From Candidatus Thorarchaeota archaeon (lineage in GTDB: Archaea; Asgardarchaeota; Thorarchaeia; Thorarchaeales; Thorarchaeaceae), in the NCBI GenBank assembly GCA_048882485.1, contig JBHLRP010000013.1, positions 1-64,000 on the forward strand: a DNA stretch of 64,000 nucleotides, in the 5' to 3' direction. This document shows positions 42,845 to 56,986 of this stretch, in pieces. A model generated the notes under the pieces. That model made no database searches and was not told the DNA's origin. It saw only the letters and a program-made list of their open reading frames with translations. Positions within the stretch are counted from its first letter, which is position 1. The number at the start of each line of letters is the position of its first letter. Both the position numbers and the translations under genes were made by a program.

Positions 42845-43213
42845 TCAACACTTACTGCAATCACCGGTCTTCATCACAATGACTTTTGCGTCTTCAGCTA
42901 TGTCTCCAAATACCTGATTGAAATAGCGTGCGGCTTCGATATAGCCTGCTACGCCAGCCTCCGTCAAGCTATAGACTCTCTGACGCCCTTCCTTTTCGCT
43001 CTTGACAGTACCCCTATCCTCTAGATCCTTGAGAGCTGGATAGATAGTGCCTGGCGTAGGCTTGGTTCCTCGCCGCATAGCAATCTGTTCTGCAATCTGT
43101 TGCCCATTCATTGGACCGTTTCGAAGCTCCCACAGAATCTGGAATGTGAGCATACCTCGCATATCACAGCAGTCGGGAGGGCAACATTGCTCATTTTCAC
43201 TATCGTCTGTCAC
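42845..43213 (-). CDS. PadR-family regulator with N-terminal CCPPDCC and C-terminal CxxC
   Basis: GPMNGQQIA..PGTIYPALKDLE..RVYSLTEAG; GTG start at 43213 (longer ORF runs through the promoter). Confidence 0.85.
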   Translation of the reverse strand: MTDDSENEQCCPPDCCDMRGMLTFQILWELRNGPMNGQQIAEQIAMRRGTKPTPGTIYPALKDLEDRGTVKSEKEGRQRVYSLTEAGVAGYIEAARYFNQVFGDIAEDAKVIVMKTGDCSKC

Positions 43214-43219
43214 GTATAA

Positions 43220-43291
43220 TATTGGGCGTCCGATAAATTTAAATGTATATGTAGGACGCCCGATATATGGTGGTGTATTGGACACCCAATA
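43220..43291. promoter_or_regulatory. Three palindromic operator boxes TATTGG-N4-CC(A/G)ATA
   Basis: 43220-43235 TATTGGGCGTCCGATA; 43250-43265 TGTAGGACGCCCGATA; 43276-43291 TATTGGACACCCAATA. Confidence 0.8.
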
Positions 43292-43331
43292 AAAGGTGAA
43301 AATCTTGACAGAGATGAAGAAAGTCAGTGAA

Positions 43332-44105
43332 ATGTCATCGGAAGAGATCAAAGATGCCGTAAAGGATACCTATTCCAGAGTCGCTCAACCTGCCGATGGA
43401 AGCTGTTGTGGTCCATCTGAAACAGAACAGGCAGCGTCTGACTGTGGAACGTCCGGGTGTGGTCCTTCTGGCAATGTTCGAACATCCTATGCAGAGTCCC
43501 TTGGCTATTCAGTGAAAGACATGCCAGAGTCGGCGACCGAGTCATTTGCAGGATGTGGCAATCCTGTAGCCATTGCTAGCCTCAAGGAAGGAGAAGTAGT
43601 CTTAGACTTGGGGAGTGGAGCCGGACTAGACATGTTTCATGCGGCAAGGAAGGTTGGCGACACCGGTCGAGTGATAGGTGTCGATATGACTCCAGCAATG
43701 ATTGAGAGAGCGAAGCATGGAGCAGAGCAGCTTGGGCTTGAGAATGTCGAGTTCAGATTGGGCGACATAGAAGACATGCCAGTAGAGGACAGCTCTATAG
43801 ATGTCATCATCAGCAATTGCGTCATCAACCTCGCACCAGACAAAGGCCAAGTGTTCCGAGAAGCGTACAGAGTCCTTCGACCAGGCGGAAGAGTCATGGT
43901 TTCGGACATAGTTCTTGAAGCCAATTTGCCGGAAAAGGTACGTGACGAGATAGCCAACTATACAGGTTGTCTTGGAGGCGCCATTCTCGAGGAAGAGTAT
44001 CTCCAGCATATACGCGATGCAGGATTCGAGGGAGTAGAAGTCGTCAGCAAGACTGGTTTCGGTCAGGCATCTAGTGCAAAGATTGCGGCATACAAACCCA
44101 AGTAA
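43332..44105 (+). CDS. arsM: Arsenite S-adenosylmethionine methyltransferase
   Basis: SCCG, GCGNP, LDLGSGAG, ISNCVINL, TGCLGGA. Confidence 0.92.
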   Translation: MSSEEIKDAVKDTYSRVAQPADGSCCGPSETEQAASDCGTSGCGPSGNVRTSYAESLGYSVKDMPESATESFAGCGNPVAIASLKEGEVVLDLGSGAGLDMFHAARKVGDTGRVIGVDMTPAMIERAKHGAEQLGLENVEFRLGDIEDMPVEDSSIDVIISNCVINLAPDKGQVFREAYRVLRPGGRVMVSDIVLEANLPEKVRDEIANYTGCLGGAILEEEYLQHIRDAGFEGVEVVSKTGFGQASSAKIAAYKPK

Positions 44106-44374: not shown

Positions 44375-45589
44375 TTACCTTGAGCTGACAAACTCTACAG
44401 CATTGTCATCACAGATTACAGCACACAGCCCACAGCCATCGCATTTCTTTGGATTAACAACTGCCTTGCCCTCGCGCATCTGAATTGCCAGATATCCGCC
44501 GTCTGCACAGGCAATAACGCATTTCTTGCATCCAGTGCATTTGTCCGAAATCACAAACGCTGTAACGGGTGAAAGCTTGCTAAGGGCCTCCCACGTAGTT
44601 ATTTTGGGCAGGGCTTTGCCAACAATCTCATCGATACTGGCATAACTCTTACGTTCCATGAAGGAATCTAAACCCTCAATCATGTCCTTGATGATACCAA
44701 ATCCGTACCACATAGCCGCTGTGCACACCTGTAGTGTCTTTGCACCTGCCATAAGATACTCAGTTGCACTTCTCCAGTCTTCAATTCCTCCGATTCCAGA
44801 GATTGGAGTTTCAGGCAAGGCACGAGCAATCTGCGAAACGAATCGAAGACCTATCGGCTTCACAGCAGGTCCACAAAAGCCTCCATATGTAGAGAGTTGC
44901 TCCTTAAGATTCGGCCCATAGGCAATCGGCATTGGTGTTTGAGTTTCAACATCTATTCCTATGAGTGACTCTACAGTGTTGATAGCAGAAAGTCCGTCAG
45001 CGCCACCCCTGACAGCAGCCTCAGCAATCGGGACCATATCTGTGACATTGGGAGTGAGTTTAACAAGTATAGGAAGGTCTGTTCCTTTCCGTGCTCCCTT
45101 GGTCACTGCCTCGACCAGTTCCGGATTCTGGCCAATGAAGGCACCCATATGCTTCTCAGGAGAACCGTGTGGACAGGAAACATTCAGCTCTATTGCATCA
45201 ACTCCCGTCTGGGTCATCGTTTCAGCGAGCTTCGTCCATCCATCAGGATTGGGGCTGCTCATAATGCTTGCAACAAGCACGAAGTCCTCCGGAGCCTCTC
45301 GCTTGAGTTGTGGAATCCACTCATCAGTCCATGTTGACAGAGGCTTTCGGGATAGGAGTTCTATGTTGTTCATTCCAATTGGTGATCCATCTCTTCTTAG
45401 CACCCCTAGCCTTGTGCGCGGGTCTACTGTTGGCTCCTCTGTCACAGTCTTGAAGACTGCTCCTCCCCAGCCGAGTCTTGCCGCTCTAAGCATATGCCGC
45501 ACATCCATTGTCGGCGGAGCGGATGAGAGCATGAAAGGATTCTTGAAACTGATTCCAGCAAATTGAACGGCGAGCCTTTCCTTGGACAT
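44375..45589 (-). CDS. preA: Dihydropyrimidine dehydrogenase PreA/PydA subunit
   Basis: SSAPPT, NNIELLS, ELNVSCPHG, KLTPN, C-terminal two Fe-S motifs. Confidence 0.92.
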   Translation of the reverse strand: MSKERLAVQFAGISFKNPFMLSSAPPTMDVRHMLRAARLGWGGAVFKTVTEEPTVDPRTRLGVLRRDGSPIGMNNIELLSRKPLSTWTDEWIPQLKREAPEDFVLVASIMSSPNPDGWTKLAETMTQTGVDAIELNVSCPHGSPEKHMGAFIGQNPELVEAVTKGARKGTDLPILVKLTPNVTDMVPIAEAAVRGGADGLSAINTVESLIGIDVETQTPMPIAYGPNLKEQLSTYGGFCGPAVKPIGLRFVSQIARALPETPISGIGGIEDWRSATEYLMAGAKTLQVCTAAMWYGFGIIKDMIEGLDSFMERKSYASIDEIVGKALPKITTWEALSKLSPVTAFVISDKCTGCKKCVIACADGGYLAIQMREGKAVVNPKKCDGCGLCAVICDDNAVEFVSSR

Positions 45590-45625
45590 TTCTCTACAAA
45601 CCTCCAACAATAAGGCAATGCACGG

Positions 45626-45669
45626 TTCGCCCCTAAAGTCTTTGTTTGATGGCTAAACCCATGCAAATG
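45626..45669 (+). repeat. Left copy of 44-bp inverted repeat
   Basis: TTCGCCCCTAAAGTCTTTGT-TTGATGG-CTAAACCCATGCAAATG; 36/44 identical to the reverse complement of 55564-55607, inner 17 bp perfect. Confidence 0.9.
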
Positions 45670-45718: not shown

Positions 45719-46115
45719 ATGACAATCGAGGGAGAAAGACTGCATAGAATGGTAATGCGCCATCCGCTCTTTGAGGGCTTCGCTGACTGGCTCAGACTGC
45801 ATTCTGATGCACCTATCAGAGATGAAACGGTCTATAGCTACATCCGAGGGCTGGACCTTATGCAGAGGAGGAATGGGCTTGACCTAGACAATCCCAACCT
45901 CGAACAAGTGCTCAAGAATATCAATGGTGCCAGTGCTGTGACACAGACCTTCAGACGGTTCCTCATCAAGAGATGGTTTCAATACCGTGAATCCCACCTG
46001 ACGGGGAAACTCGGGGCCTCCTGAAGGCAAGACGAGGGCCATTGAAGAGGAAGATCCATCCCAAGGACCTCCTCACGGTCAAGGACCTCGAGGACATTAT
46101 TGCCAGAGTCTGCAA
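45719..46115 (+). pseudogene. Tyrosine recombinase remnant (core-binding domain; frameshifted; catalytic domain missing)
   Basis: FEGFADWL..RDETVYSYIRGL; a frame change near 45990 continues ...LKRKIHPKDLLTVKDLEDIIAR, resembling the linker into the catalytic domain, then degenerates. Confidence 0.6.
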
Positions 46116-46310: not shown

Positions 46311-46568
46311 CTACACGCCGCCTTCCTTTAACATGCCCTCGACCTCATCTCTGCTAGGGAGCCTGCCAGTCACTCTAACCTTGCCATCAATGACAAGTGC
46401 AGGAGTCAGCATCACGCCGTATTCAACAATCTTATTGATATCTGACACCTTTATGATCTCAGCATTTAGGTTTAGATCGTCCACAATCTCTTTGACCATC
46501 TCCTCTAATGTCTGGCACTTTGTGCAGCCCATTCCTAAAATCTCCACTATCATGGTTCCTGTACTCAT
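46311..46568 (-). CDS. Small thioredoxin-like protein (MTH895 type)
   Basis: ILGMGCTKC...YGVMLTPALVIDG. Confidence 0.9.
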   Translation of the reverse strand: MSTGTMIVEILGMGCTKCQTLEEMVKEIVDDLNLNAEIIKVSDINKIVEYGVMLTPALVIDGKVRVTGRLPSRDEVEGMLKEGGV

Positions 46569-46672
46569 TTATTCCACCCAATCAGCCGCGAAATAATCGA
46601 ATTATATAAATATATCACTAATTCCATTTCCCCTCTACAAGATCCTGTTGAACGTGAAGAAAGGCGAGAGGT

Positions 46673-47290
46673 ATGAAGAAATACACTGCTGATGGTTTCA
46701 CATTCACTATTACCGAGGTGAAGCCATGTCTAGCTGACGAGCAACGAATTCGAATAATCGCTAATTTCGAGGCTGATCTGACTCCGATACTGGAGGTTCT
46801 ATTCCTCCACTTGCGAAATGCCAATTACTCGAGGAGTCTTTCCTGTGTCACCACAAAGCGTGCTGGGCACTCAACAACAGTATTTGGGAGCGGGAAGGTA
46901 GCCATGACATTCCTCAAAGATGAGGCTGAAGCGCTGAATCAACTGATGACTCTCGCAAAGACACTCACTAGAGCTTTTGCCTATCTGGATGCCAATGGTC
47001 CTCCGGATTCGGATGTTGTGCACGCAAAGGAGAACATCAATACACTCCAGATACACAAACTTCTTCCTCAGACTGACTGTGGTGACTGTGGAAAATCGGG
47101 CTGTTTCGCCTTTGCCACTCTGCTTATGAATGGTGAAAGGGATATTGCTGACTGTGAGCTCCTCGAGTGTGCAGAGTATTCAGACAAGCGGAATGCTCTA
47201 GTCAAGGTGATTCAGCCAATTAATCTGGATATGAGAAGAGATGATCGATCTGACCTTGCAGAATTTCTAGGGCTAAAGAGTTGGGGATGA
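46673..47290 (+). CDS. Fe-S-binding protein (C-terminal FeS domain)
   Basis: KPCLAD N-terminal Cys; LPQTDCGDCGKSGCFAFA...CELL. Confidence 0.8.
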   Translation: MKKYTADGFTFTITEVKPCLADEQRIRIIANFEADLTPILEVLFLHLRNANYSRSLSCVTTKRAGHSTTVFGSGKVAMTFLKDEAEALNQLMTLAKTLTRAFAYLDANGPPDSDVVHAKENINTLQIHKLLPQTDCGDCGKSGCFAFATLLMNGERDIADCELLECAEYSDKRNALVKVIQPINLDMRRDDRSDLAEFLGLKSWG

Positions 47291-47367
47291 CTGGCCGACA
47301 ATGACGAAACCTTGCAGTTTCGATTCAGCCAAGACCCACCACTATGAACCTCTCAGAACAGTTAAAT

Positions 47368-47383
47368 ATCGCGATTATCCGAT
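47368..47383. promoter_or_regulatory. Candidate ArsR box ATCG-N8-CGAT upstream of acr3
   Basis: ATCGCGATTATCCGAT just downstream of TTAAATA; same pattern at 48597-48612. Confidence 0.65.
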
Positions 47384-47415
47384 AAATCGAGAGCCTACTT
47401 ACGAGATGAAACATA

Positions 47416-48525
47416 ATGGGTGAATCTGAAACCAGTACTAAATCTGTGGTGGGCAGTCCAATAACAGGCCTGTCTACGCTCGATAAATTCCTACCACTTT
47501 GGATCATCTTGGCTATGGCTTTTGGTATCTTACTCGGCTATCTAGTCCCCGGACTTGCTGAGGCATTGGACTACTGGAGCATTGGAACTGTATCCATTCC
47601 CATAGCAATTGGTCTGTTGTGGATGATGTATCCTGTTTTGGCCAAGGTCAAGTACGAGGAACTGGGAAAGCTGAAGGGCGAGAAGAAGATGTTTGGTGTT
47701 TCCTTGACCCTGAACTGGTTGATTGGCCCATTTCTGATGTTTGCCCTGGCCTGGATATTTCTGGCTGATTTTCCGGACTACCGAACTGGCATAATACTTG
47801 TGGGTCTGGCACGGTGTATCGCGATGGTGTTGATCTGGAACATGATGGCAGGAGGATGCAGCGAGTCATGCGCAGTTCTTGTTGCACTGAACTCGGTCTT
47901 CCAGATAATCATGTATAGTCCTGAGGCGTGGTTTTTTGTCACCTATCTCTCTTCCATAGTGTCGCCAGGTGCTGGTTCTGTTGTAGAGGTTTCGATTCTC
48001 GAGATTGCCTGGAGCGTCATAATCTTTCTTGGAATTCCACTTGCAGCCGGTATCATCACACGATTCAGCCTGATGAGGCGCCGCTCAAAAGAGTGGTACG
48101 ACAAAGAGCTTGCACCAAAGCTCGGACCCTACGCACTCATTGGCCTCCTCTTTACGATTGTAGTCATGTTCTCACTGAAGGGTGACACAATCATTGCCCT
48201 CCCGCTCGATGTACTTAGAATCTCCCTCCCACTTCTTGCCTATTTTGTCCTCATGTTCTTGGTGTCTTTTGGAATTTCACTTGCCATGAAGTTCCCCTAC
48301 GACAAGAATGCCACGATATCATTCACAGCAGCGAGTAACAACTTCGAACTGGCAATAGCTGTGGCGATTGGAGTGTTTGGGATTGGGTCAGGACAGGCAC
48401 TGGCAGCTGTTGTTGGCCCCCTCATTGAGGTGCCGGTCCTAGTTGGGCTCGTCTATGTTTCTCTCTGGTTAAGACGCAGATTCTACGGGTGGAAACCAAG
48501 AATCGCAGACCAAGGCGAGCAATGA
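47416..48525 (+). CDS. acr3: Acr3 arsenite efflux transporter
   Basis: LDKFLPLWI, MMYP, GLARCIAMV, SNNFELAIA, GPLIEVP. Confidence 0.96.
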   Translation: MGESETSTKSVVGSPITGLSTLDKFLPLWIILAMAFGILLGYLVPGLAEALDYWSIGTVSIPIAIGLLWMMYPVLAKVKYEELGKLKGEKKMFGVSLTLNWLIGPFLMFALAWIFLADFPDYRTGIILVGLARCIAMVLIWNMMAGGCSESCAVLVALNSVFQIIMYSPEAWFFVTYLSSIVSPGAGSVVEVSILEIAWSVIIFLGIPLAAGIITRFSLMRRRSKEWYDKELAPKLGPYALIGLLFTIVVMFSLKGDTIIALPLDVLRISLPLLAYFVLMFLVSFGISLAMKFPYDKNATISFTAASNNFELAIAVAIGVFGIGSGQALAAVVGPLIEVPVLVGLVYVSLWLRRRFYGWKPRIADQGEQ

Positions 48526-48596
48526 ACGGTGGTCACAGCATTGCAATGCTCCCGTCACACCCTTTGAAGGGAACGCCACCATAGAAACACTGATAT

Positions 48597-48612
48597 ATCG
48601 AAATAAATCGAT
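48597..48612. promoter_or_regulatory. Candidate ArsR box upstream of the lipoyl/DGC operon
   Basis: ATCGAAATAAATCGAT. Confidence 0.65.
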
Positions 48613-48633
48613 TATTTAACGATTACATGTGAG

Positions 48634-49017
48634 TTGGTCACGATGAACTCTCAGAAGCCAGCCTTCATCATGTGTGTATGCACCGGCAAATGCCCTGGTT
48701 TTGAGAAGATGGACATCTGGGACTTCATCAATACAGTCCGAATGGCCCTTCCAGTGCAACATGGTGTCATTCATCCTCAATTGTGTGAAGAAGATGGTGA
48801 CCGCTATTTGGAAGATGTTCTGCAGCCTGGACAGAAAGTCTTCATTGGTGGATGTGCTCCAGCCATGCAATACAAGCTCTTCCGTGATGCCTTTGAGAAG
48901 AAAGGTCTTGATGTGAAGAGCGATCTCGTTCCGATTGACGTTCGCGACATGACTACCGAGGAAGCTGTTGACCGAGTGTCTGAGGAGTTGAAGAAACATG
49001 GATATGACATCGAGTGA
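48634..49017 (+). CDS. Stand-alone HdrA N-terminal-like Cys domain protein
   Basis: MCVCTGKC...HPQLC..DG...IGGCAP..QYKLF resembles the HdrA N-domain pattern CxC..C..ACSP. Confidence 0.6.
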   Translation: MVTMNSQKPAFIMCVCTGKCPGFEKMDIWDFINTVRMALPVQHGVIHPQLCEEDGDRYLEDVLQPGQKVFIGGCAPAMQYKLFRDAFEKKGLDVKSDLVPIDVRDMTTEEAVDRVSEELKKHGYDIE

Positions 49018-49306
49018 GTCAGGTTCAGATGAGACCTTCATGGGTGTTGCACGGGACAAGATTCCCTGGTGGCCAACCATCGACCTCGAAAGATGCGATG
49101 GCTGCAATGGTGAGTACGACTGTCTGAAGTTCTGTCCGCACAGAGTCTACAAGCCAATTGAAACCCCCTCAAGAATTTCAGTTGAGAATCCATACAACTG
49201 CGTGGTCTTCTGTCAGGCATGCAAGAAGATGTGCCCCAAGGATGCCATCTCCTTTCCTTCAAAGGGAGAAATCCTCAAGCTGATCAAAACGGAACGTGCA
49301 AAGTAG
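48998..49306 (+). CDS. 2x[4Fe-4S] ferredoxin
   Basis: CDGC-x5-CLKFCP; CVVFCQACKKMCP. Confidence 0.88.
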   Translation: MDMTSSESGSDETFMGVARDKIPWWPTIDLERCDGCNGEYDCLKFCPHRVYKPIETPSRISVENPYNCVVFCQACKKMCPKDAISFPSKGEILKLIKTERAK

Positions 49307-49317
49307 GGTGATGGTGG

Positions 49318-50154
49318 ATGGCACGGAAATACATCTTTCCATGTGCAGGATATGACCGTCCCGGTGGAGAGGTTTCGAGAACAGCTGCAGAACGATTGGC
49401 TAGAGAACGTGATGATGTTGTCATCGGAAGCATGGGGGCGCTCTTCAAGGAACGCCCTGGCGAGATGCGTGACTTCAGGACCTCTGATGTGTTCTGTCTT
49501 GATGGCTGTGGTACAAACTGCGCCTCAGAACTTGTGCATGCTCGAGGCCGGAATGACATCACAAGTATCTCCATTCCTGAAACTGTAGGTTCAATCGAGG
49601 GCTTTGATGAGAAGGTAAGTCACTTGATTCGACTCGTGACTCATAAATTGGATAGGACAAGACCCAAGGCGGCATCAACTATCACTGTAGAACCTTCACG
49701 CGAGATTGAATATATTGAAGAGAAATTCGACAAGTTCACGCTCAGAGTGGCAAAAGGTCTGAAGTACTCGGACAATGACTTCTGGGTCGGGATTGAAGGA
49801 GAGCTTGTTCGGATAGGAGTGTCAGACTTCCTACAACAGATGATGTCTGACGTGTACTTTGTGGAGCTTGTAGACACTGGCACTCACGTAAACATGTTTG
49901 ATGATGCTGGGGCGATGGAGTCTACAAAGATTCTAGTCGAGATTATAGTCCCTGTGTCAGGGACCATAGTAGAAGTCAATACTTCTCTTGAGGACAGCCC
50001 CGAGTTTATCAATGAGAGTTCGTATGATAAAGGCTGGCTTTACCTCATCGAACCTGATGACCTAGATGAACTAGAACTGCTTAGAGATGCATCTGACTAT
50101 ATGGCACATGCCCTAGCGAAAGCAAAAGAAGAGATCGGAAAAAAGGTGGAATGA
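49318..50154 (+). CDS. DGC zinc-binding domain fused to a GcvH-like lipoyl carrier
   Basis: FPCAG...LDGCGTNCA; then W..RIGVSDF..ESTK (lipoyl Lys)..PVSGTIVEVN..YDKGWL. Confidence 0.85.
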   Translation: MARKYIFPCAGYDRPGGEVSRTAAERLARERDDVVIGSMGALFKERPGEMRDFRTSDVFCLDGCGTNCASELVHARGRNDITSISIPETVGSIEGFDEKVSHLIRLVTHKLDRTRPKAASTITVEPSREIEYIEEKFDKFTLRVAKGLKYSDNDFWVGIEGELVRIGVSDFLQQMMSDVYFVELVDTGTHVNMFDDAGAMESTKILVEIIVPVSGTIVEVNTSLEDSPEFINESSYDKGWLYLIEPDDLDELELLRDASDYMAHALAKAKEEIGKKVE

Positions 50155-50157
50155 AGA

Positions 50158-50541
50158 GTGAAGAGGGTTATAATTCCATGCAGTGGAATCGGAAAGGCAT
50201 TCGGTTCGGTCGCACGAGAAGCAACCTATCTATTGACCGATTCTGAACGCTCTGATGAATACATGACAATCTGTCTTCCATTGTTGATGACAGATGAGGA
50301 GGAGCCCAAGAGGGTGGTAGCGGAATCAGATGCCTACACCATTGACGGCTGTCCAAAGAGATGCGCATCTGTATTAGTCAGACACGTTGGGGGAAAGCCT
50401 GTCATGGAGATAATGACACCTAAGGTTCTAGCAGAGAAAAAGGAACACAAGCCCGAAACTGTCCTCGATATAGGCGTAGGCGGTCAGCTTCTTGCAAAAG
50501 ACATCATGAGGCTGATTCTGAATCATGGAGGGTCTGAGTGA
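50158..50541 (+). CDS. DGC domain protein
   Basis: IPCSG, ICLP, IDGCPKRCA. Confidence 0.85.
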   Translation: MKRVIIPCSGIGKAFGSVAREATYLLTDSERSDEYMTICLPLLMTDEEEPKRVVAESDAYTIDGCPKRCASVLVRHVGGKPVMEIMTPKVLAEKKEHKPETVLDIGVGGQLLAKDIMRLILNHGGSE

Positions 50542-50945
50542 TGACATTCAAGCCTAAGGTCGGACTCATCTCATGCAGCGGTGAAGCTTGCTCAGGTGGA
50601 AATATCTCTCGAGCCGCAACGCTTGAGGTCTTGCATCACTTGAAACCAACAGAAACAGTAACAATATGCCTCCCTCTATTCCTGGCCGGAGATGAGGCAG
50701 AACGGGACTTTGCAAAGAACTTTCCTACGATTACTATTGATGGATGTGACAAACTCTGCGCGGCAAAGGGTACAGCGAGATATAGTAGCGAACCAGCTAT
50801 AACGATCAACCTAGAAGATTATCTGGGGCGCTCCTGCATGGGTGTTGATGAAAGATGGAGAGTAGAACAGAGTGGTGAGATTGTTGAGAGAATCGCCCAG
50901 GACATCGCATCACATGTTGACAGTCTAAGGGAAGAGTGGAGGTGA
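50538..50945 (+). CDS. DGC domain protein
   Basis: ISCSGEAC, ICLP, IDGCDKLCA. Confidence 0.85.
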   Translation: MMTFKPKVGLISCSGEACSGGNISRAATLEVLHHLKPTETVTICLPLFLAGDEAERDFAKNFPTITIDGCDKLCAAKGTARYSSEPAITINLEDYLGRSCMGVDERWRVEQSGEIVERIAQDIASHVDSLREEWR

Positions 50946-51226
50946 TAGATGTGTCTGATAAGATTCCGGTATTGGTGTTCCTCGCAGATGGTGTTTGTGG
51001 TTGTAGCCAGACTGGCTTTCTCGGACGGGTATATGAAGCAGTAAGAAAGTATAGAGATGTAGTGGATTATAGGGAGTACACAGCCGGAAGTGAAGCTGCA
51101 AAGCGTTATAGTATAGGCTACCGTGGCGTGGTTGTTGGGAATCAATCACTTGGAAGCAATCCCACAACATCCAGACTGGAGGAAGCTATTCTTAGAGAAA
51201 TCGAGAGCCGAGGTATCAATGCATAA
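50936..51226 (+). CDS. Thioredoxin-fold protein with CxC motif
   Basis: VLVF..GVCGC...AKRYSI..GVVV..PTTSRLEEAI. Confidence 0.6.
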   Translation: MEVIDVSDKIPVLVFLADGVCGCSQTGFLGRVYEAVRKYRDVVDYREYTAGSEAAKRYSIGYRGVVVGNQSLGSNPTTSRLEEAILREIESRGINA

Positions 51227-51376
51227 TAAGATTACACAATAGATAGTCCATGCATCGGGAGCACCGATATATAGATAAATTGATTTATCGAGATAAACAG
51301 TCCCCTTGACAATCGCACGGCATGGGACAGGCTTGCCGAACTAGAAGCAGGCGAGATTTCAATGTGAAGTGTTAGT

Positions 51377-51673
51377 ATGATGATTGATAGGAAGACTGAA
51401 TGGCGAGTCCATTTTCATAAAGCTCTAAGCAACCCTGAACGTCTAAGAATAATTGACTTCCTTGCAGATGGAGAACAATGTCAGTGTGACATCTTTCCTC
51501 AGATTGGACTATCTCAGTCAACGGTTTCTGCATATCTGACTCAGCTCGTGAGAGCTGGTATTCTGAGTGTGAGACGTGATGGTACCAGGAAGCTCTACAG
51601 TCTCAGTGACCCGAGGATCCGTCGGATGATTGATGACATTCATGCTATTGCTGCTGAGATGACAGCAAGGTGA
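51377..51673 (+). CDS. arsR: ArsR/SmtB family repressor
   Basis: KALSNPERLRII..GEQCQCDI..SQSTVSAYL..RRDG..YSL. Confidence 0.9.
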   Translation: MMIDRKTEWRVHFHKALSNPERLRIIDFLADGEQCQCDIFPQIGLSQSTVSAYLTQLVRAGILSVRRDGTRKLYSLSDPRIRRMIDDIHAIAAEMTAR

Positions 51674-51759
51674 CCTAAGAACACGGATGAGATATGCATC
51701 TCCTATCCAACTGCAGACAGATGCTTGACTTGCCGGCATCTGGGTTGTGAAGTGGTATT

Positions 51760-52368
51760 ATGAACGACAAGAGTCAAGCTGGAGTCCTAACAGAATCCAC
51801 ACACGAAACAGATGGCTCGCAAAGGATACGGAGCATCATTGAGCTTCGACATGGCTCCAAGATTACTATTGAATCATTATGGAAACCGAGTGAAGACGAG
51901 TCGCGACTTGTTAAGACTAACACATCATTCCGCATCGGCGACCTGTCCATAACTCTGCCAAGAGCTCCTACACTACGGGCTCACTCTTGTTTCATCAAGA
52001 AGGGGTTTGGCGACAACCTGGAATCTCTTTCCAGCACTAGAACAACCGACACTTCGCTGAAAAGGGTGAAGAGAGTTCACATGGTGACCCGATATGACGG
52101 TGTCGGAGTGTTCTTGGACTCACTATCAGCTGCCTTTTGGGCGGGTGACTGTAGATGGGTAAAAGAGGTTTCTGTGGAAACAGCGGCCTTTGTTCTCAAG
52201 ACTGACAGAAACAGCGTGATAGAGAGTGCCACAGCGGCTTCGAGAGAAACTTGGGAAGCAATCGATACGGTTTTGTCGATCATTTCAATTGCGAATCAAC
52301 TCAGTTGCCGTATTGGTGACATGGGCATCACCCTCGAGGAGCTAAATGCGAAGAGATTCGCTGTCTGA
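51760..52368 (+). CDS. Hypothetical protein
   Basis: 202-aa ORF in operon orientation; no motif recognised. Confidence 0.45.
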   Translation: MNDKSQAGVLTESTHETDGSQRIRSIIELRHGSKITIESLWKPSEDESRLVKTNTSFRIGDLSITLPRAPTLRAHSCFIKKGFGDNLESLSSTRTTDTSLKRVKRVHMVTRYDGVGVFLDSLSAAFWAGDCRWVKEVSVETAAFVLKTDRNSVIESATAASRETWEAIDTVLSIISIANQLSCRIGDMGITLEELNAKRFAV

Positions 52369-52684
52369 ATTGAAAATTAACGGCTTATGTCTTCTTCCAA
52401 ATTCTGTTTGACCGTTCATTTCTAGTTTGTCCAAGCTCAATGTGGCTGTTGGCAATCCTTTGCAGTCAATGAATTCAATGTCTGTGTACCCACTGGGCAT
52501 CCAGCGATGTTTCACTATCTCCCGAAACATTGATTTATTGAGATTGTCCGGTTATTTGACATGTATCCTTCGAGCTGGCAAGAATCTATTCCCTTGTCTT
52601 TGTGGTTGTTCTCAAAGTCCTCAGCATTGAGGACTAGAACACCCTCCTCATCCCCAATAGGGCCTTTTCTGGGGGAGGATAGCA

Positions 52685-53404
52685 ATGAAAGACTTTGAAT
52701 TCCCATGCGTGGTATGCGGGAAGCCACTGCATGAAACCGAAGGCGAGGTTCTCTCATGTAGTTACTGCGGACAGGATGAAAAGAGTGATCTCACCTGTGA
52801 GGATTCCCACTTTATTTGCGAGTCTTGTCGTACCTGTACCCCAACAGAAGCAATTCTCAAGACATGTATGGCCACACAATCAGACGACTCTCTGTTACTT
52901 GCGAATCTCTTGATGCATCATCCAGCAATTCCAATGTCCGGTCCAGAACACCATCTTTTGGTTCCAGCAATCCTACTGACAGTGGCACACAATGCTGGAC
53001 GCAAGATGACCCTCGAATCTCGATTGCGCCAGGCATTGAAACGTGCAAATAGATTCGGACTTGGCAGTTGCGCAAGTATGGGCGCCTGCGGAGCGGCGAT
53101 GGGCGTTCCAATCGCAGTCAGTCTATTGGTGAGTGCCGACTACACCAAACCAAAGGAGCGTAAGAGTGTCCTTGATGCCTCCGCTTCCGCCGTGATTGCG
53201 ACTGCCAATCTACCAGCGGGGAGGTGCTGCAAAGCATCAGTGTACTCATCCCTCGATGTTGGCACAACCTACCTCATAAAAGAACTGGGCATAGAGGTTA
53301 CGCCCATGTCAAGTCCGATTTGCCAGTTTAAGGAGCACAATCCAGAGTGCCTGAAGATGGAGTGTCCATTTTTCGGGCAGAGTTCATCAAATGGTGACAT
53401 ATAG
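52685..53404 (+). CDS. DUF5714 protein with N-terminal zinc ribbon
   Basis: CVVCG..CSYCG..C..HFICESC; GPEHH, CASMGACGA, RCCK, C..N.EC...CPF. Confidence 0.8.
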   Translation: MKDFEFPCVVCGKPLHETEGEVLSCSYCGQDEKSDLTCEDSHFICESCRTCTPTEAILKTCMATQSDDSLLLANLLMHHPAIPMSGPEHHLLVPAILLTVAHNAGRKMTLESRLRQALKRANRFGLGSCASMGACGAAMGVPIAVSLLVSADYTKPKERKSVLDASASAVIATANLPAGRCCKASVYSSLDVGTTYLIKELGIEVTPMSSPICQFKEHNPECLKMECPFFGQSSSNGDI

Positions 53405-54486
53405 TGACATCATTATCAGAAGTCCGGCTTTATGGAGGCCCTAATCCAGGTGGTGTATGGGACGTTGCCTTGGATGAGGCTCTTCTTCGTACCACCTGCG
53501 AGGACCAAGGACCTCTCACAATACGAATCTGGCAAAGCACAAGTCCTGCACTAATACTCCCACGGAGCCCGCTGCCCAAGGAGGAAGCCCTCATTCGGTA
53601 CTGCACTTCAGAAAGTATCCACATGACACGGGCAATCAGTGGTCGGAGACCACTTATGCTTGGTCAAGGAGTTCTGAATCTCTCACTGGTTGACAAATCA
53701 ACTGCTTTGAAATCCGGAAGCCTAGAGGCAGAGGTTGCTGAGCTGCTCTCTCCGCTCCTAGATGGAATTCGCTCGGTGTTCTCTTTAAGTGAGCTGACCT
53801 TTGAACAAGGCTATCTCCTTAGTGAAACCTCAGCTTTTGGCATGTACAACACTTCATATTATTTCGACTATCTACTGATTCAGGGCATGATCATTCTTCA
53901 TGCTAATAAGCACCCGACGGCCCTCATGACTTCAAGAGATGGGGTTCATATTAGACCTCTGGATCAGATTCATTCTGATGCTTCAAATGCTCGTTTCATT
54001 GATTCCATTATACAGTCCATTTCAGAGAATTATGGAGTACAGCTGAACATGGTGGTAGCCAGTGCCCGAGAGACCGATCTCATGAATGAACTCTATCAAT
54101 GGAAATACACCAATGATGATTGGGTATACCATCAATCAGAACCGCTGGCATTGGGCCGAGTACTTTTGGAAGGTTATCTTGCGTATCCACCTACAGCTCG
54201 ATGCCGCACAATAATGGCAATTATCGATGACATATCACAGAAATACAGCGACAAGGTGGAGTGTCGGATATGGCTTCGAGGAAAAGGCCTAATCTCATGG
54301 CTTAAGGGCATTCCTCCTGGTCTACGTCCTAGTGGTGGAGTAGTCCAAGCCTCCAAGAAGAACATTGTGCCAGCGATAGTAGTTGAAGGGAAAATAACAC
54401 ATGAACGGATAGTTCCCATTTATGATGACCTCTGTAGAATTGTTGAGGAGGCACATGATGCGGCATTTGGTGGCATCTCGAAATGA
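53404..54486 (+). CDS. Degenerate lipoate-ligase domain fused to a thioredoxin-like domain
   Basis: ALDEALL..IRIWQ, but RAISGRR replaces RRxSGGG and there is no catalytic Lys; C-terminal PPTARC...PAIVVEG. Confidence 0.7.
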   Translation: MTSLSEVRLYGGPNPGGVWDVALDEALLRTTCEDQGPLTIRIWQSTSPALILPRSPLPKEEALIRYCTSESIHMTRAISGRRPLMLGQGVLNLSLVDKSTALKSGSLEAEVAELLSPLLDGIRSVFSLSELTFEQGYLLSETSAFGMYNTSYYFDYLLIQGMIILHANKHPTALMTSRDGVHIRPLDQIHSDASNARFIDSIIQSISENYGVQLNMVVASARETDLMNELYQWKYTNDDWVYHQSEPLALGRVLLEGYLAYPPTARCRTIMAIIDDISQKYSDKVECRIWLRGKGLISWLKGIPPGLRPSGGVVQASKKNIVPAIVVEGKITHERIVPIYDDLCRIVEEAHDAAFGGISK

Positions 54487-55256
54487 TGAACTCGAAGTGG
54501 CGTGTTGTGATCTCAAAGGAAACTGACCCACAGTGGAACATCGCTCTCGATGAGGCAATACTGAGAGGCGTTATCGACGACGGTTCACCAAACACCATTC
54601 GTGTTTGGCAAAACTCTAGATCAGTTATAATGGGCCGTAGTCAAGATGTGAGAGCAGAGGTAAACACAGAATTGTGTAATGAACTTGGCATCCCTATCAT
54701 TAGGCGTTGCAGTGGTGGAGGAACTGTGTATATGGACCTTGGAAACTACAACTACTCAATCACTGCAGTTACCACAACTATCACCGAAGCGAATTCAATT
54801 CCCGATGTTACTCGTTTCCTGTGTTCAGCCATTATCGATTTATTATCCCAATTAGGTTGTAATCCAAGGTTTGTACCCCCCTCTAGTGTCTTCATTGAAG
54901 ATTGGAAAGTTTCTGGGTCTGCTCAATACTATCTTTATGAAGGCATTCTTCATCATGGCACACTACTGGTTGACTCTGACCTAGATATGATGCAGAAGGT
55001 CCTAAGCCCAAATTCAGAGCTTGCACATAGACTTGGGACTGTTCCAAGTATCCCGAATCCTGTAGCAAACATATCTCTCCTGCTTGGAAAAGAGATTCAC
55101 TCCCAAGATATTGAGAAACGATTAGTCGGGTCACTCACGAAACTATTGGGAAAAAACTGCTGGAAAATGGAATCAATCAGTGAGAGTGAAAACGAACTTG
55201 CCCAGATACTGGTTGAAACCAAATACTCTGACACTAGCTGGTTATCAGGAACATAG
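54483..55256 (+). CDS. lplA: Lipoate--protein ligase/octanoyltransferase catalytic domain
   Basis: NIALDEAIL, RRCSGGGTVY, KVSGSAQ, HHGTLL. Confidence 0.9.
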   Translation: MMNSKWRVVISKETDPQWNIALDEAILRGVIDDGSPNTIRVWQNSRSVIMGRSQDVRAEVNTELCNELGIPIIRRCSGGGTVYMDLGNYNYSITAVTTTITEANSIPDVTRFLCSAIIDLLSQLGCNPRFVPPSSVFIEDWKVSGSAQYYLYEGILHHGTLLVDSDLDMMQKVLSPNSELAHRLGTVPSIPNPVANISLLLGKEIHSQDIEKRLVGSLTKLLGKNCWKMESISESENELAQILVETKYSDTSWLSGT

Positions 55257-55563: not shown

Positions 55564-55607
55564 CATTTGCATGGGTTTAGGGTGCGGACAAAGTCTTTAG
55601 GCGCGAA
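55564..55607 (-). repeat. Right copy of 44-bp inverted repeat
   Basis: CATTTGCATGGGTTTAG-GGTGCGG-ACAAAGTCTTTAGGCGCGAA. Confidence 0.9.
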
Positions 55608-55639: not shown

Positions 55640-56986
55640 GTGGACATAATGACTGATGAATTGGTTCCCAAAGACCTGCGTAGGCAGTATTCAAGGGAAG
55701 AGATTCTTGAGATTGAGAAGGAACACATGGCTCCTGCAGTGGCCCATTATTATGCAGATCCAGTGCTCCTTGTGAATGGAGAAGGAGCTACTCTTGAGGA
55801 CAGCTCTGGAAAACAATACATAGACTTGTTCGCAGGCATCTGCACAACAATTACAGGATACAATCATCCCAAATTTGTGGCTACCATAAAGTGGCAAGCT
55901 GAAAGACTTGTCTATACTAGTTCAATGTATGCGACAATTCCCTACGCAGTACTTGTGAAACGACTCGCAAAGATTTCCCCAGTTGGCCTTACTCAGTCTT
56001 TCATTGTCAACAGTGGCTCTGAGGCCAATGAAGCTGCACTCTTCATGGCGCGGAAATACACAAACAATCCGTACATTGTTGCATGCTTGCGAGGCTATCA
56101 CGGACGGACTACCCTCACGAGAGAGATATCAAGTGCTGGATGGCGCACTGTTCCTGAAAGTCATCCATCAGGTGTGCGATTTACTCCATATGGATACTGT
56201 TTTCGTTGCCATTTCGGAAAGGAGTATCCAGATTGTGATTTTGAATGCGCCCGCTATCTCAAAGAGGTCGTGCGAACTCAGACCAATAACGCAATTGCCG
56301 CCTTCATTTCTGAACCGATTCAGGGAGTCGGGGGGATCATACAACCACCCTCAGAGTACTTCCGTATTGTGCACGAAATCGTGAAGGAGTATGGCGGCCT
56401 CTACATCTCAGATGAGGTTCAGACAGGATTTGGCAGAACTGGGGATAAATGGTGGGGAATACAACATGCCGGAGTCGATCCTGACATCATAACCCTTGCA
56501 AAGGGCTTCGGTAGTGGTATTCCTGTGGCTGGCTTCATCACGAGTCCCGAGCTTGTACAGGACTTCGTCATAACCGATGCATTCGCAACTTATGGGGGGA
56601 ATCCCTTGTCTTGTGCAGCAGCTGTAGCCGTCATTGAAATCATCGAAGAGAGTAATTACTTGGAGAAAGCCGCGAAACTTGGAAAGGAATTCAAGAAGAA
56701 ACTAAAGAGTTTAGAAGAAGATCACAAATTGGTTGGAGAGGTGCGCGGACAAGGAATGATGCTGGGAGTAGAACTCATTCGGGATGAAGCCACAAAAGAA
56801 CCAGCTGTGGACGAGATGATACAGGTCATGGAGCTTACCAAGAACAACGGCCTCTTGGTGGGTAAAGGAGGACTAGATGGTAACGTTATCAGAATACAAC
56901 CTCCACTTGAACTTACGGCCGAGCAAATCGACAAGTCTTATGAAATCTTGGATGAAGTCTTCTCTGAAATAGAGAAGAAGATGTGA
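55640..56986 (+). CDS. Class III PLP aminotransferase (probably beta-alanine aminotransferase, PydD-like)
   Basis: SGSEANE, YHGRT, EPIQGVGG, DEVQTGFGRTG, AKG; pyrimidine-catabolism context. Confidence 0.85.
   Translation: MDIMTDELVPKDLRRQYSREEILEIEKEHMAPAVAHYYADPVLLVNGEGATLEDSSGKQYIDLFAGICTTITGYNHPKFVATIKWQAERLVYTSSMYATIPYAVLVKRLAKISPVGLTQSFIVNSGSEANEAALFMARKYTNNPYIVACLRGYHGRTTLTREISSAGWRTVPESHPSGVRFTPYGYCFRCHFGKEYPDCDFECARYLKEVVRTQTNNAIAAFISEPIQGVGGIIQPPSEYFRIVHEIVKEYGGLYISDEVQTGFGRTGDKWWGIQHAGVDPDIITLAKGFGSGIPVAGFITSPELVQDFVITDAFATYGGNPLSCAAAVAVIEIIEESNYLEKAAKLGKEFKKKLKSLEEDHKLVGEVRGQGMMLGVELIRDEATKEPAVDEMIQVMELTKNNGLLVGKGGLDGNVIRIQPPLELTAEQIDKSYEILDEVFSEIEKKM

Follow-up and report, generated by a model that had tools for sequence, protein, structure and literature searches.

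A 64,000-nt stretch of Candidatus Thorarchaeota DNA (contig JBHLRP010000013.1 of assembly GCA_048882485.1), called the window below, carries between 45.6 and 55.6 kb a gene island that places arsenic-resistance genes beside a predicted lipoyl carrier. In this island the arsenic genes acr3 and arsR enclose a cassette that encodes two iron–sulphur (Fe-S) proteins, two cysteine-rich DGC proteins and a fusion of a third DGC domain with a domain of the glycine-cleavage H-protein type (DGC~GcvH). With a probability of about 0.55 for the reading as a whole, we regard the region as an arsenic-resistance island that was inserted horizontally and is governed by an ArsR of the CxC type; its cassette would work as an ArsR-controlled, ferredoxin-fed dithiol relay.

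Cassette distribution and linkage with arsenic genes

The six genes from the HdrA-N-like protein to the CGC protein overlap or lie at most 11 nt apart, and they stand between acr3 and arsR (Table 1). The first-pass annotation of this DNA had described this run of HdrA-N-like, ferredoxin, DGC-GcvH, two DGC and CxC thioredoxin-like genes with its acr3 and arsR flanks, and the open reading frames (ORFs) and the Pfam and NCBIfam matches confirmed it. It had left the genes at 46311–47290 unnamed; they were annotated here as an ArsE-type CxxC thioredoxin on the minus strand and an RnfB-type Fe-S protein. The locus has both an ArsR with an As(III)-type CxC in helix 3 and the arsenite efflux permease Acr3, two of the features that mark an ArsR-controlled ars locus.

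The five-gene core was defined as the HdrA-N-like, ferredoxin, DGC~GcvH fusion, DGCb and DGCc genes. The neighbourhoods of the fusion gene showed this core to be invariant in 25 loci of Thorarchaeota and their relatives, where arsR usually lies 3′ of the core and Acr3 is adjacent in about two thirds. The Acr3 proteins beside the core belong to two different clades. In locus L001 the acr3-arsR-DUF5714-ligase block stands on the other side of the core and is still adjacent. A search started from the HdrA-N-like protein found the same core in bacterial and Lokiarchaeal loci, and a metagenome scan added 80 loci, which brought the total to 105 unique loci. Asgard archaea and anaerobic bacteria are their sources, and many of the loci are on short contigs. 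Neighbouring genes were clustered without bias, and genes in the metagenome loci were chosen by weighting for cross-locus support. The number of loci with an H-domain is a lower bound, because in part of the bacterial loci the fusion gene is hidden by a few antisense ORFs that are themselves conserved (clusters c20 and c28).

Within 8 kb of the cassette, the partners found among the 105 loci were ArsR (72), the MTH895/ArsE-type thioredoxin cluster of the Thioredoxin_3 family (51), Acr3 (37), DsbD_2 (25), AhpC/thioredoxin-like proteins (24), ArsM or an ArsC of the LMWPc family (18), LplA (17), metallophosphoesterase (13), an ABC/FtsX exporter (10 to 16), rhodanese (8) and ArsP (7). The RnfB-type Fe-S protein occurred in 12 loci, and the 96-aa CGC protein in 22, mostly archaeal. 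A stricter count used the 26 fully flanked loci, which have at least 4 kb upstream and at least 6 kb downstream. ArsR was present in 23/26 of these, a small thioredoxin-fold protein likewise in 23/26, DsbD_2 in 11/26, Acr3 in 10/26 and LplA in 7/26; at least one of Acr3, ArsP, ArsM or ArsC was found in 13/26. By our own estimate, if a genome of about 4 Mb has one or two Acr3 genes, chance would put one beside the cassette in well under 1% of cases. The cassette is thus linked with arsenic genes strongly, though not obligatorily, and the link proposed in the first-pass annotation extends beyond chance across more than 100 loci. That annotation had held that a module occurring mostly without ars genes would refute its reading, and such a pattern was not seen.

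Several cassette islands have further gene content. An LMWPc ArsC adjoins the cassette in about nine other loci, in two of them as an apparent ArsC-ArsM fusion of 410 aa, which clusters with LMWPc ArsC as well as with ArsM (L085:11341–12573 and L094:15758–16990). In one Thorarchaeota clade at 46–54% identity, a block 5′ of the cassette (L003:1–9150, with the same order in L020, L060 and L066) encodes a BshC-like Rossmann protein, a GT4 glycosyltransferase, a PIG-L deacetylase and an NAD kinase. This block resembles bacillithiol synthesis and gives the cassette neighbours that would make a low-molecular-weight thiol.

The cassette could also be a general ferredoxin-dependent thiol/disulfide or sulfur relay of anaerobes, which is not specific for arsenic and was recruited by, or travels with, arsenic islands. 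The 13 of 26 fully flanked loci that lack a nearby structural ars gene, the frequent bacterial partners (DsbD_2, AhpC/TlpA-like thioredoxins, rhodanese and ABC exporter) and the bacillithiol-like neighbours of one clade are in line with this idea. It leaves unexplained, however, why a CxC-type ArsR accompanies nearly all full loci with its site conserved across domains, why Acr3 adjacency is far above the chance estimate, and why Acr3 was exchanged for one of a different clade while the adjacency was kept. We consider a cassette without arsenic specificity the least probable of the explanations discussed here.

Insertion of the island

The genes that flank the insert, a dihydropyrimidine-dehydrogenase-like gene (44375–45610, minus strand) and a class III aminotransferase gene (55640–56986), are 99 bp apart in the complete genome of the relative G001 (L142:2680–2810). 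The cassette of G001 itself lies about 510 kb from this empty site. In the boundary alignment, the intergenic palindrome of G001, CCCCTAAAGTCTTTAGG, is split in the window, and AAAGTCTTT is present at both insert ends as a duplication. The ends form a 44-nt inverted repeat that is 82% complementary, and immediately within them stand the two arms of a perfect inverted repeat of 17 nt. The 10-kb set arrived or moved as a single unit, because the flanks adjoin in G001, the target is split and inverted repeats stand at the ends. No integrase, transposase or other recombinase was recognised within the insert.

The insert interrupts a pyrimidine-catabolism cluster that comprises the dihydropyrimidine-dehydrogenase-like gene, the aminotransferase, a CN-hydrolase and an amidohydrolase. 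Outside the island, beyond the dihydropyrimidine-dehydrogenase-like gene, the window holds an arsenite methyltransferase gene (NF008823, 305.7 bits, cut-off 263) divergent from a gene for a PadR/ArsR-like regulator (42845–44105).

The predicted lipoyl carrier

The AlphaFold2 (AF2) model of the DGC~GcvH fusion had a mean predicted local distance difference test score (pLDDT) of 86. Its H-domain superposed on the pea H-protein 1htp with a template modelling (TM) score of 0.95, normalised to the target, and 38% identity. Lys204 in the ES(T)K motif was invariant among 25 diverse fusion homologues, so that the H-protein fold and the lipoyl Lys are both present. The fused DGC part kept three invariant Cys (C9, C64 and C68) in the same homologues, and the second DGC Cys is missing. 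A profile search of 1.84 billion representatives found the full-length fusion in about 30 clusters at 50% identity, together with stand-alone H-like forms. The protein P0234 (1391 aa) contains three stretches that match the H-domain part of the profile, which is a multi-H-domain architecture.

The carrier shares fold and lipoyl Lys motif with GcvH and differs from it in three respects. A DGC domain is joined to it; its scores fall slightly short of the NCBIfam GcvH cut-offs (107.1 versus 115.85 and 111.5 versus 117) and it is not adjacent to gcvT or gcvP, so that it falls outside the GcvH equivalog in score and in linkage; and it forms a branch of its own. In the H-domain tree, 68 cassette-linked H-domains were separated from the three other H-proteins of the genome by a branch with a Shimodaira–Hasegawa-like approximate likelihood ratio test (SH-aLRT) support of 96. 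Judged by its sequence, the fused carrier is an extra, specialised paralogue.

The genome (G000) measures 3.96 Mb and is 90.5% complete. It encodes a canonical gcvT-gcvH pair on contig C38, GcvP on C20 and C37, two more H-like genes, an E2 gene on C17 with a ligase gene beside it, and two further ligases. Lipoate metabolism is not confined to the locus, because the genome has gcvT-gcvH, GcvP, E2 and three other ligases. The first-pass annotation had stressed that glycine-cleavage genes, 2-oxoacid dehydrogenase genes and arsC are missing from the window. For GcvP, GcvT, E2 and the only ArsC candidate, which is of the LMWPc type, this holds for the window, and all four are encoded on other contigs (C20/C37, C38, C17 and C40, respectively), so the genome does have these functions; the L-protein was outside the search. 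The second arsR-acr3 pair of the genome is located at G000:C15:17970–19442 (L046). Its Acr3 frame contains one in-frame TAG and matches just under the family cut-off, and this second acr3 may be a pseudogene.

Lipoate-protein ligases

Two lipoate-ligase paralogues had been annotated downstream of the cassette. Both genes are LplA-like, and only the 257-aa protein is intact. It contains the RRCSGGGTVY and KVSGSA motifs and matches a solved LplA (1vqz) at E = 4e-28. The 360-aa protein, which is 24% identical to the 257-aa ligase, has SGRRP in place of SGGG and SETSAFG where the Lys motif would be. We annotated it as a pseudo-ligase because the SGGG motif and the catalytic Lys are lost. It has an extra C-terminal region of about 110 aa and occupies a long separate branch in the ligase tree. 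Two-part archaeal ligases need a C-terminal accessory domain or a separate LplB for adenylation. No C-terminal accessory domain was present in the 257-aa ligase or recognised in the 360-aa protein, in a comparison of these two proteins that did not extend to LplB in the genome.

In the LplA catalytic-domain tree, the 257-aa ligase grouped with other Thorarchaeal cassette-linked ligases (SH-aLRT 98). Next to join was another clade of cassette-linked ligases, encoded on metagenome contigs (SH-aLRT 84), and a third such clade was more distant. Three housekeeping groups (the C1, C17 and C18 types) were placed elsewhere, each common to G000 and the relatives G001 and G002. The idea that the 257-aa ligase is the only one in the genome was rejected, as four intact LplA-type genes were found. 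G002 carries the cassette without an extra ligase; therefore, the extra ligase is frequent and not universal. In the bacterial island L048, a truncated LplA catalytic-domain gene of 181 aa (L048:9751–10296) lies 3′ of DsbD, and the DGC gene that follows the ferredoxin has no H-domain (162 aa).

Fe-S and DGC proteins

The HdrA-N-like protein had 1194 homologues, with 60–70% identity between archaea and bacteria and five invariant Cys. Its profile was collinear with residues 3–93 of three solved HdrA chains in a weak but consistent match (E = 0.017, 0.022 and 0.3), and C14, C16, C51 and C74 fell on HdrA Cys in this alignment. The match to the NCBIfam HdrA model had an E value of 0.0013. A search for longer forms, fused to other domains, found none at E = 1e-10, which by the search tool's own note is weak evidence. 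The ferredoxin gene lies directly 3′ of the HdrA-N-like gene in 97/105 loci. The distant thioredoxin-like fold of the 96-aa CGC protein was indicated by an Atlas feature search, with a score of 0.91 to clusters of which 59% carry PF13192.

The DGC domains show a C...C...DGC...C pattern, of which the fused copy has lost the second Cys. The AF2 model of DGCc showed a four-stranded alpha/beta domain (pLDDT 86, predicted TM score 0.83). Compared with solved structures, the DGC domain gave nothing below E = 0.67 by sequence and no match at E = 0.001 or better by Foldseek. The wide VIA-align search gave a best Z of 8.7 for an uncharacterised Wolinella protein, followed by flavodoxin-like alpha/beta domains at Z = 7–8. 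Assignment of a function to DGC from these folds was rejected, since the Z values are at the level expected for unrelated folds. No paper was found that assigns a function to any DGC protein. A fourth DGC protein of the genome (159 aa; G000:C15:38401–38616, L042:1357–1836, minus strand) is solitary, with no cassette gene near.

A three-chain complex model of the fused DGC domain, DGCb and DGCc scored 0.76 for DGCc versus 0.01 for the best control. In calibration, the threshold mark was reached by 58/80 solved complexes and by 2/110 mismatched pairs. The runs shared at least 81% of contacts, and the pLDDT of the partner was at least 81. The confident contacts join the Cys loops of DGCb (C8, C39 and C65/C69) to those of DGCc (C13, C18, C44 and C74). 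The fused DGC domain was left unplaced against DGCc, which was counted neither way. No like DGC complex was found among solved structures by sequence and fold searches. The model suggests that DGCb and DGCc form a heterodimer and share a site rich in cysteine, where metal clusters might be bound or thiols might be catalytic.

Since the window lacks arsC, the cassette had been proposed to take part in arsenate reduction. In this form, the cassette would be a ferredoxin-driven reductase for arsenate or pentavalent organoarsenicals that replaces or supplements ArsC in strict anaerobes; the DGC Cys loop would bind the oxyanion and the lipoyl dithiol would be the resolving thiol. Most cassette loci have no adjacent ArsC. 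In DGC proteins, strand 1 ends with an invariant Cys, after which come a loop rich in Gly and an Arg that is likewise invariant, and the weak, non-significant Foldseek rows include ArsC of the low-molecular-weight phosphatase type. However, the only LMWPc protein of the genome (G000:C40:19929–20318, L044:1453–1941) bears the CTGNSARS and CDKAKQECP motifs of a thioredoxin-type ArsC, and LMWPc ArsC genes also stand beside about nine other cassettes. Both findings weaken the argument from the missing arsC. The fold matches of DGC are generic, with a best Z of 8.7 where unrelated folds reach 7 to 8. We judge a reductase of this kind improbable. The ArsC candidate on C40 is not in an ars context; its neighbours encode proteins of 276 and 478 aa.

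A non-redox role of the cassette was also considered. Trivalent arsenicals form tight complexes with vicinal dithiols, dihydrolipoamide among them. A reduced lipoyl arm together with the three-Cys DGC domain might bind As(III) or two-coordinate organoarsenicals such as methylarsenite and either shield the other lipoyl enzymes of the cell or hand the metalloid on to Acr3 or ArsP, with the Fe-S proteins serving only to keep the carrier reduced. Such a chaperone or decoy would fit the exactly three invariant Cys of the fused DGC domain, where its paralogues have four, the Acr3 or ArsP pump beside 11 of the 26 fully flanked loci, and the recurrence of ArsP, ArsM and the ArsE-type thioredoxin beside the cassette. 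The two strictly conserved Fe-S proteins that head the operon everywhere seem to go beyond the needs of a chaperone, and a stoichiometric decoy would be costly. We hold this role to be unlikely. The decoy, chaperone and reductase roles were all raised in the first-pass annotation as conjectures.

ArsR and the shared 14-nt motif

The window contains three exact copies of the 14-nt motif TGATWTATYGARAT, all of them within the island (Table 1). In 15 related loci a copy with at most one mismatch was found 24–51 nt 5′ of the HdrA-N-like gene. Where the genes are present, it also stands approximately 100–147 nt 5′ of arsR and 137–154 nt 5′ of DUF5714. Two additional loci, L018 and L056, have it 85–86 nt 5′ of acr3 instead. 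The motif is absent elsewhere in these loci with few exceptions. The motif may be promoter and operator at once, because it includes a TATA-like core. ArsR may bind the motif. In either capacity it ties the ligase operon to the cassette and to arsR.

The CxC of ArsR was kept in 20/20 aligned cassette-linked ArsR sequences, including the bacterial ones. The classical R773 ArsR has its As(III) site at this position.

Table 1. Features of the island and its boundaries, with positions in the window.
Feature	Position	Strand	Remarks
Left boundary of the 10-kb insert	45626–45669		Target-derived CCCCTAAAGTCTTT, then inner 17-nt inverted repeat CTAAACCCATGCAAATG
101-aa ORF without family	45719–46024	+	No Pfam or NCBIfam match; inside the insert
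MTH895/ArsE-family thioredoxin-like protein (Thioredoxin_3)	46311–46568	-	Active site CTKC; PF13192 93 bits; TIGR00412 104.5 bits (cut-off 62)
205-aa protein with RnfB/ACDS-gamma-type Fe-S domain	46673–47290	+	CGDCGKSGC; PF04060 45 bits
Acr3 arsenite efflux permease	47416–48525	+	TIGR00832 425 bits (cut-off 282.8)
14-nt putative promoter/operator motif, copy 1	48591–48604	+	TGATATATCGAAAT; 43 nt 5′ of the cassette; inside the palindrome ATCGA-N6-TCGAT
HdrA-N-terminal-like Fe-S protein, stand-alone, 127 aa	48634–49017	+	Five invariant Cys (CVCTGKC, C51, C74); start probably the ATG at 48643
Ferredoxin, 2x[4Fe-4S]-type	48998–49306	+	Irregular Cys spacing; Fer4-family matches; overlaps the HdrA-N-like gene by 20 nt
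DGC~GcvH fusion	49318–50154	+	PF08859 (38 bits, cut-off 27) and PF01597; lipoyl Lys K204 in ESTK; 11-nt gap after the ferredoxin gene
DGC protein b (DGCb)	50158–50541	+	PF08859 52.6 bits; four invariant Cys (C8, C39, C65, C69)
DGC protein c (DGCc)	50538–50945	+	PF08859 59.9 bits; four invariant Cys (C13, C44, C70, C74), C18 nearly invariant; 4-nt overlap with DGCb
96-aa CGC protein, distant Thioredoxin_3-like fold	50936–51226	+	No Pfam match; overlaps DGCc by 10 nt
14-nt putative promoter/operator motif, copy 2	51281–51294	+	96 nt 5′ of arsR
ArsR/SmtB repressor	51377–51673	+	EQCQCD; NF033788 73 bits (cut-off 55)
202-aa protein without known family	51760–52368	+	Kept 3′ of arsR in 10 loci
14-nt putative promoter/operator motif, copy 3	52531–52544	+	154 nt 5′ of DUF5714; placed likewise in L001 and L005
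DUF5714/MbdU-like Cys-rich protein	52685–53404	+	PF18978 154 bits; NF045648 134 bits, under the cut-off of that model
LplA-like pseudo-ligase, 360 aa	53404–54486	+	PF21948 27.5 bits, residues 21–124 only
LplA lipoate-protein ligase, 257 aa	54483–55256	+	Intact catalytic domain; PF21948 161 bits
Right boundary of the insert	55564–55607		Inner repeat CATTTGCATGGGTTTAG, then AAAGTCTTTAGGCG

The Cys-rich protein of the DUF5714 family has N-terminal CxxC pairs followed by GSCASMGACG and RCC. For the 202-aa protein 3′ of arsR, the Atlas search returned nothing usable (scores of 0.76, TM below 0.4).

Comparison with known systems

The sHdr-LbpA system of sulfur oxidation uses a GcvH-like lipoyl carrier outside central metabolism, with LplA-like ligases of its own (Cao et al. 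2018, eLife, PMC6067878). The island resembles this system in a lipoyl carrier encoded near Hdr-related Fe-S proteins and in the LplA-like ligases alongside, distinct from the housekeeping machinery. Unlike sHdr, the island has no HdrB or HdrC (CCG) and no flavin-bearing HdrA, and an HdrA-N-like domain of 124–127 aa is present instead; no CCG or FAD domain was found by Pfam and NCBIfam scans of every gene at 45.7–55.3 kb. Its carrier is fused to DGC, two more DGC proteins stand in place of any known catalytic subunit, and it is accompanied by ArsR and Acr3 and not by genes of sulfur oxidation. Membership in sHdr was rejected because HdrB, HdrC and the flavoprotein are absent.

The island also resembles ArsR-regulated ars operons with accessory thiol proteins, with which it shares the CxC ArsR, the Acr3 pump, the ArsE/MTH895-type thioredoxin and the DGC proteins. 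Known accessory proteins of ars operons include ArsD-ArsA and, in some operons, thioredoxin-system genes. A published case is Pseudodesulfovibrio mercurii ND132, in which the expression of an arsR5-arsP-arsE-DGC operon changed with arsenic (bioRxiv 10.1101/2022.10.17.512643). This operon is likewise an arsenic-responsive ArsR-type operon with an ArsE-type thioredoxin and a DGC protein, but it has one DGC gene, and no HdrA-N-like protein, ferredoxin, H-protein or ligase is named there. No paper was found that describes the cassette, and DGC genes in ars operons were noted only in passing. The earlier impression that no characterised system looks like this one therefore stands.

A protein-bound lipoyl dithiol also feeds thioredoxin-fold proteins in stress defence in the Lpd-DlaT-AhpD-AhpC relay of Mycobacterium tuberculosis. 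That relay is fed by NADH via a flavoprotein and borrows the E2 of pyruvate dehydrogenase, whereas the carrier of the island is a dedicated one, its predicted input is Fe-S proteins and ferredoxin, and the stress would be arsenic.

Proposed function of the cassette

As a ferredoxin-fed dithiol relay, the cassette may work as follows. Low-potential electrons would enter via the two Fe-S proteins, the ferredoxin and the HdrA-N-like protein, and pass to the cysteine-rich DGC assembly, whose Cys may ligate metal. This assembly would hold the lipoyl arm of the fused H-domain as a dithiol, and perhaps the small thioredoxin-fold partners likewise. The dithiol would then serve arsenic detoxification, either by providing reducing equivalents for the handling of arsenic or by holding trivalent arsenicals until export. 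The separate DUF5714-ligase operon would supply the lipoate ligase for the putatively lipoylated carrier. The DsbD_2 and TlpA/AhpC-like thioredoxin partners hint that reducing power may also be exported across the membrane in bacteria.

Several points weigh against this relay. The arsenic link is not universal: in half of the fully flanked loci the stretch from -4 to +6 kb holds no structural ars gene, none was found within 10 kb on either side of the cassette in L003, and none in the searched flanks of L010 and L020. Regulators of the ArsR/SmtB family can also respond to other soft metals or to thiol stress. The TATA-like core of the 14-nt motif means that its conservation may partly reflect promoter, not operator, function. 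As for the ligase, it is nearby in just 17 of the 105 loci, and the ligases of G002, which has the cassette, are the three housekeeping ones only. The likeness to HdrA is weak at E = 0.017 to 0.3, and DGC is without a solved relative, so that its four Cys may simply bind zinc. The lipoyl dithiol is itself a prime target of arsenite, and a purely redox role under arsenic stress is not self-evident. Finally, the functions given to the cassette proteins come from sequences and models.

Implications

Arsenite is toxic largely through tying up dihydrolipoyl groups. An arsenic-regulated cassette with a lipoyl carrier and its own ligase would turn the target of arsenic into a tool. We speculate, as a tentative and rather doubtful extension of the dithiol relay, that protein-bound lipoate is a working cofactor of a widespread anaerobic arsenic resistance, in which a dedicated and specifically lipoylated H-domain, re-reduced by a DGC heteromer that is connected to the Fe-S proteins, captures or reduces arsenicals and hands the products to Acr3 or ArsP. 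Methylarsenite or pentavalent organoarsenicals might be among the substrates; to our knowledge, no reductase is known for the latter.

Many uncultured anaerobes of sediments and soils carry the cassette, in settings whose arsenic speciation has consequences for water and rice. It could account for those arsenic steps of anaerobes to which no gene is assigned. If the proposal is true, it would give the first function for the DGC domain and for the free-standing HdrA-N-like protein, and it would be the second non-metabolic role of lipoate, after sHdr-LbpA.

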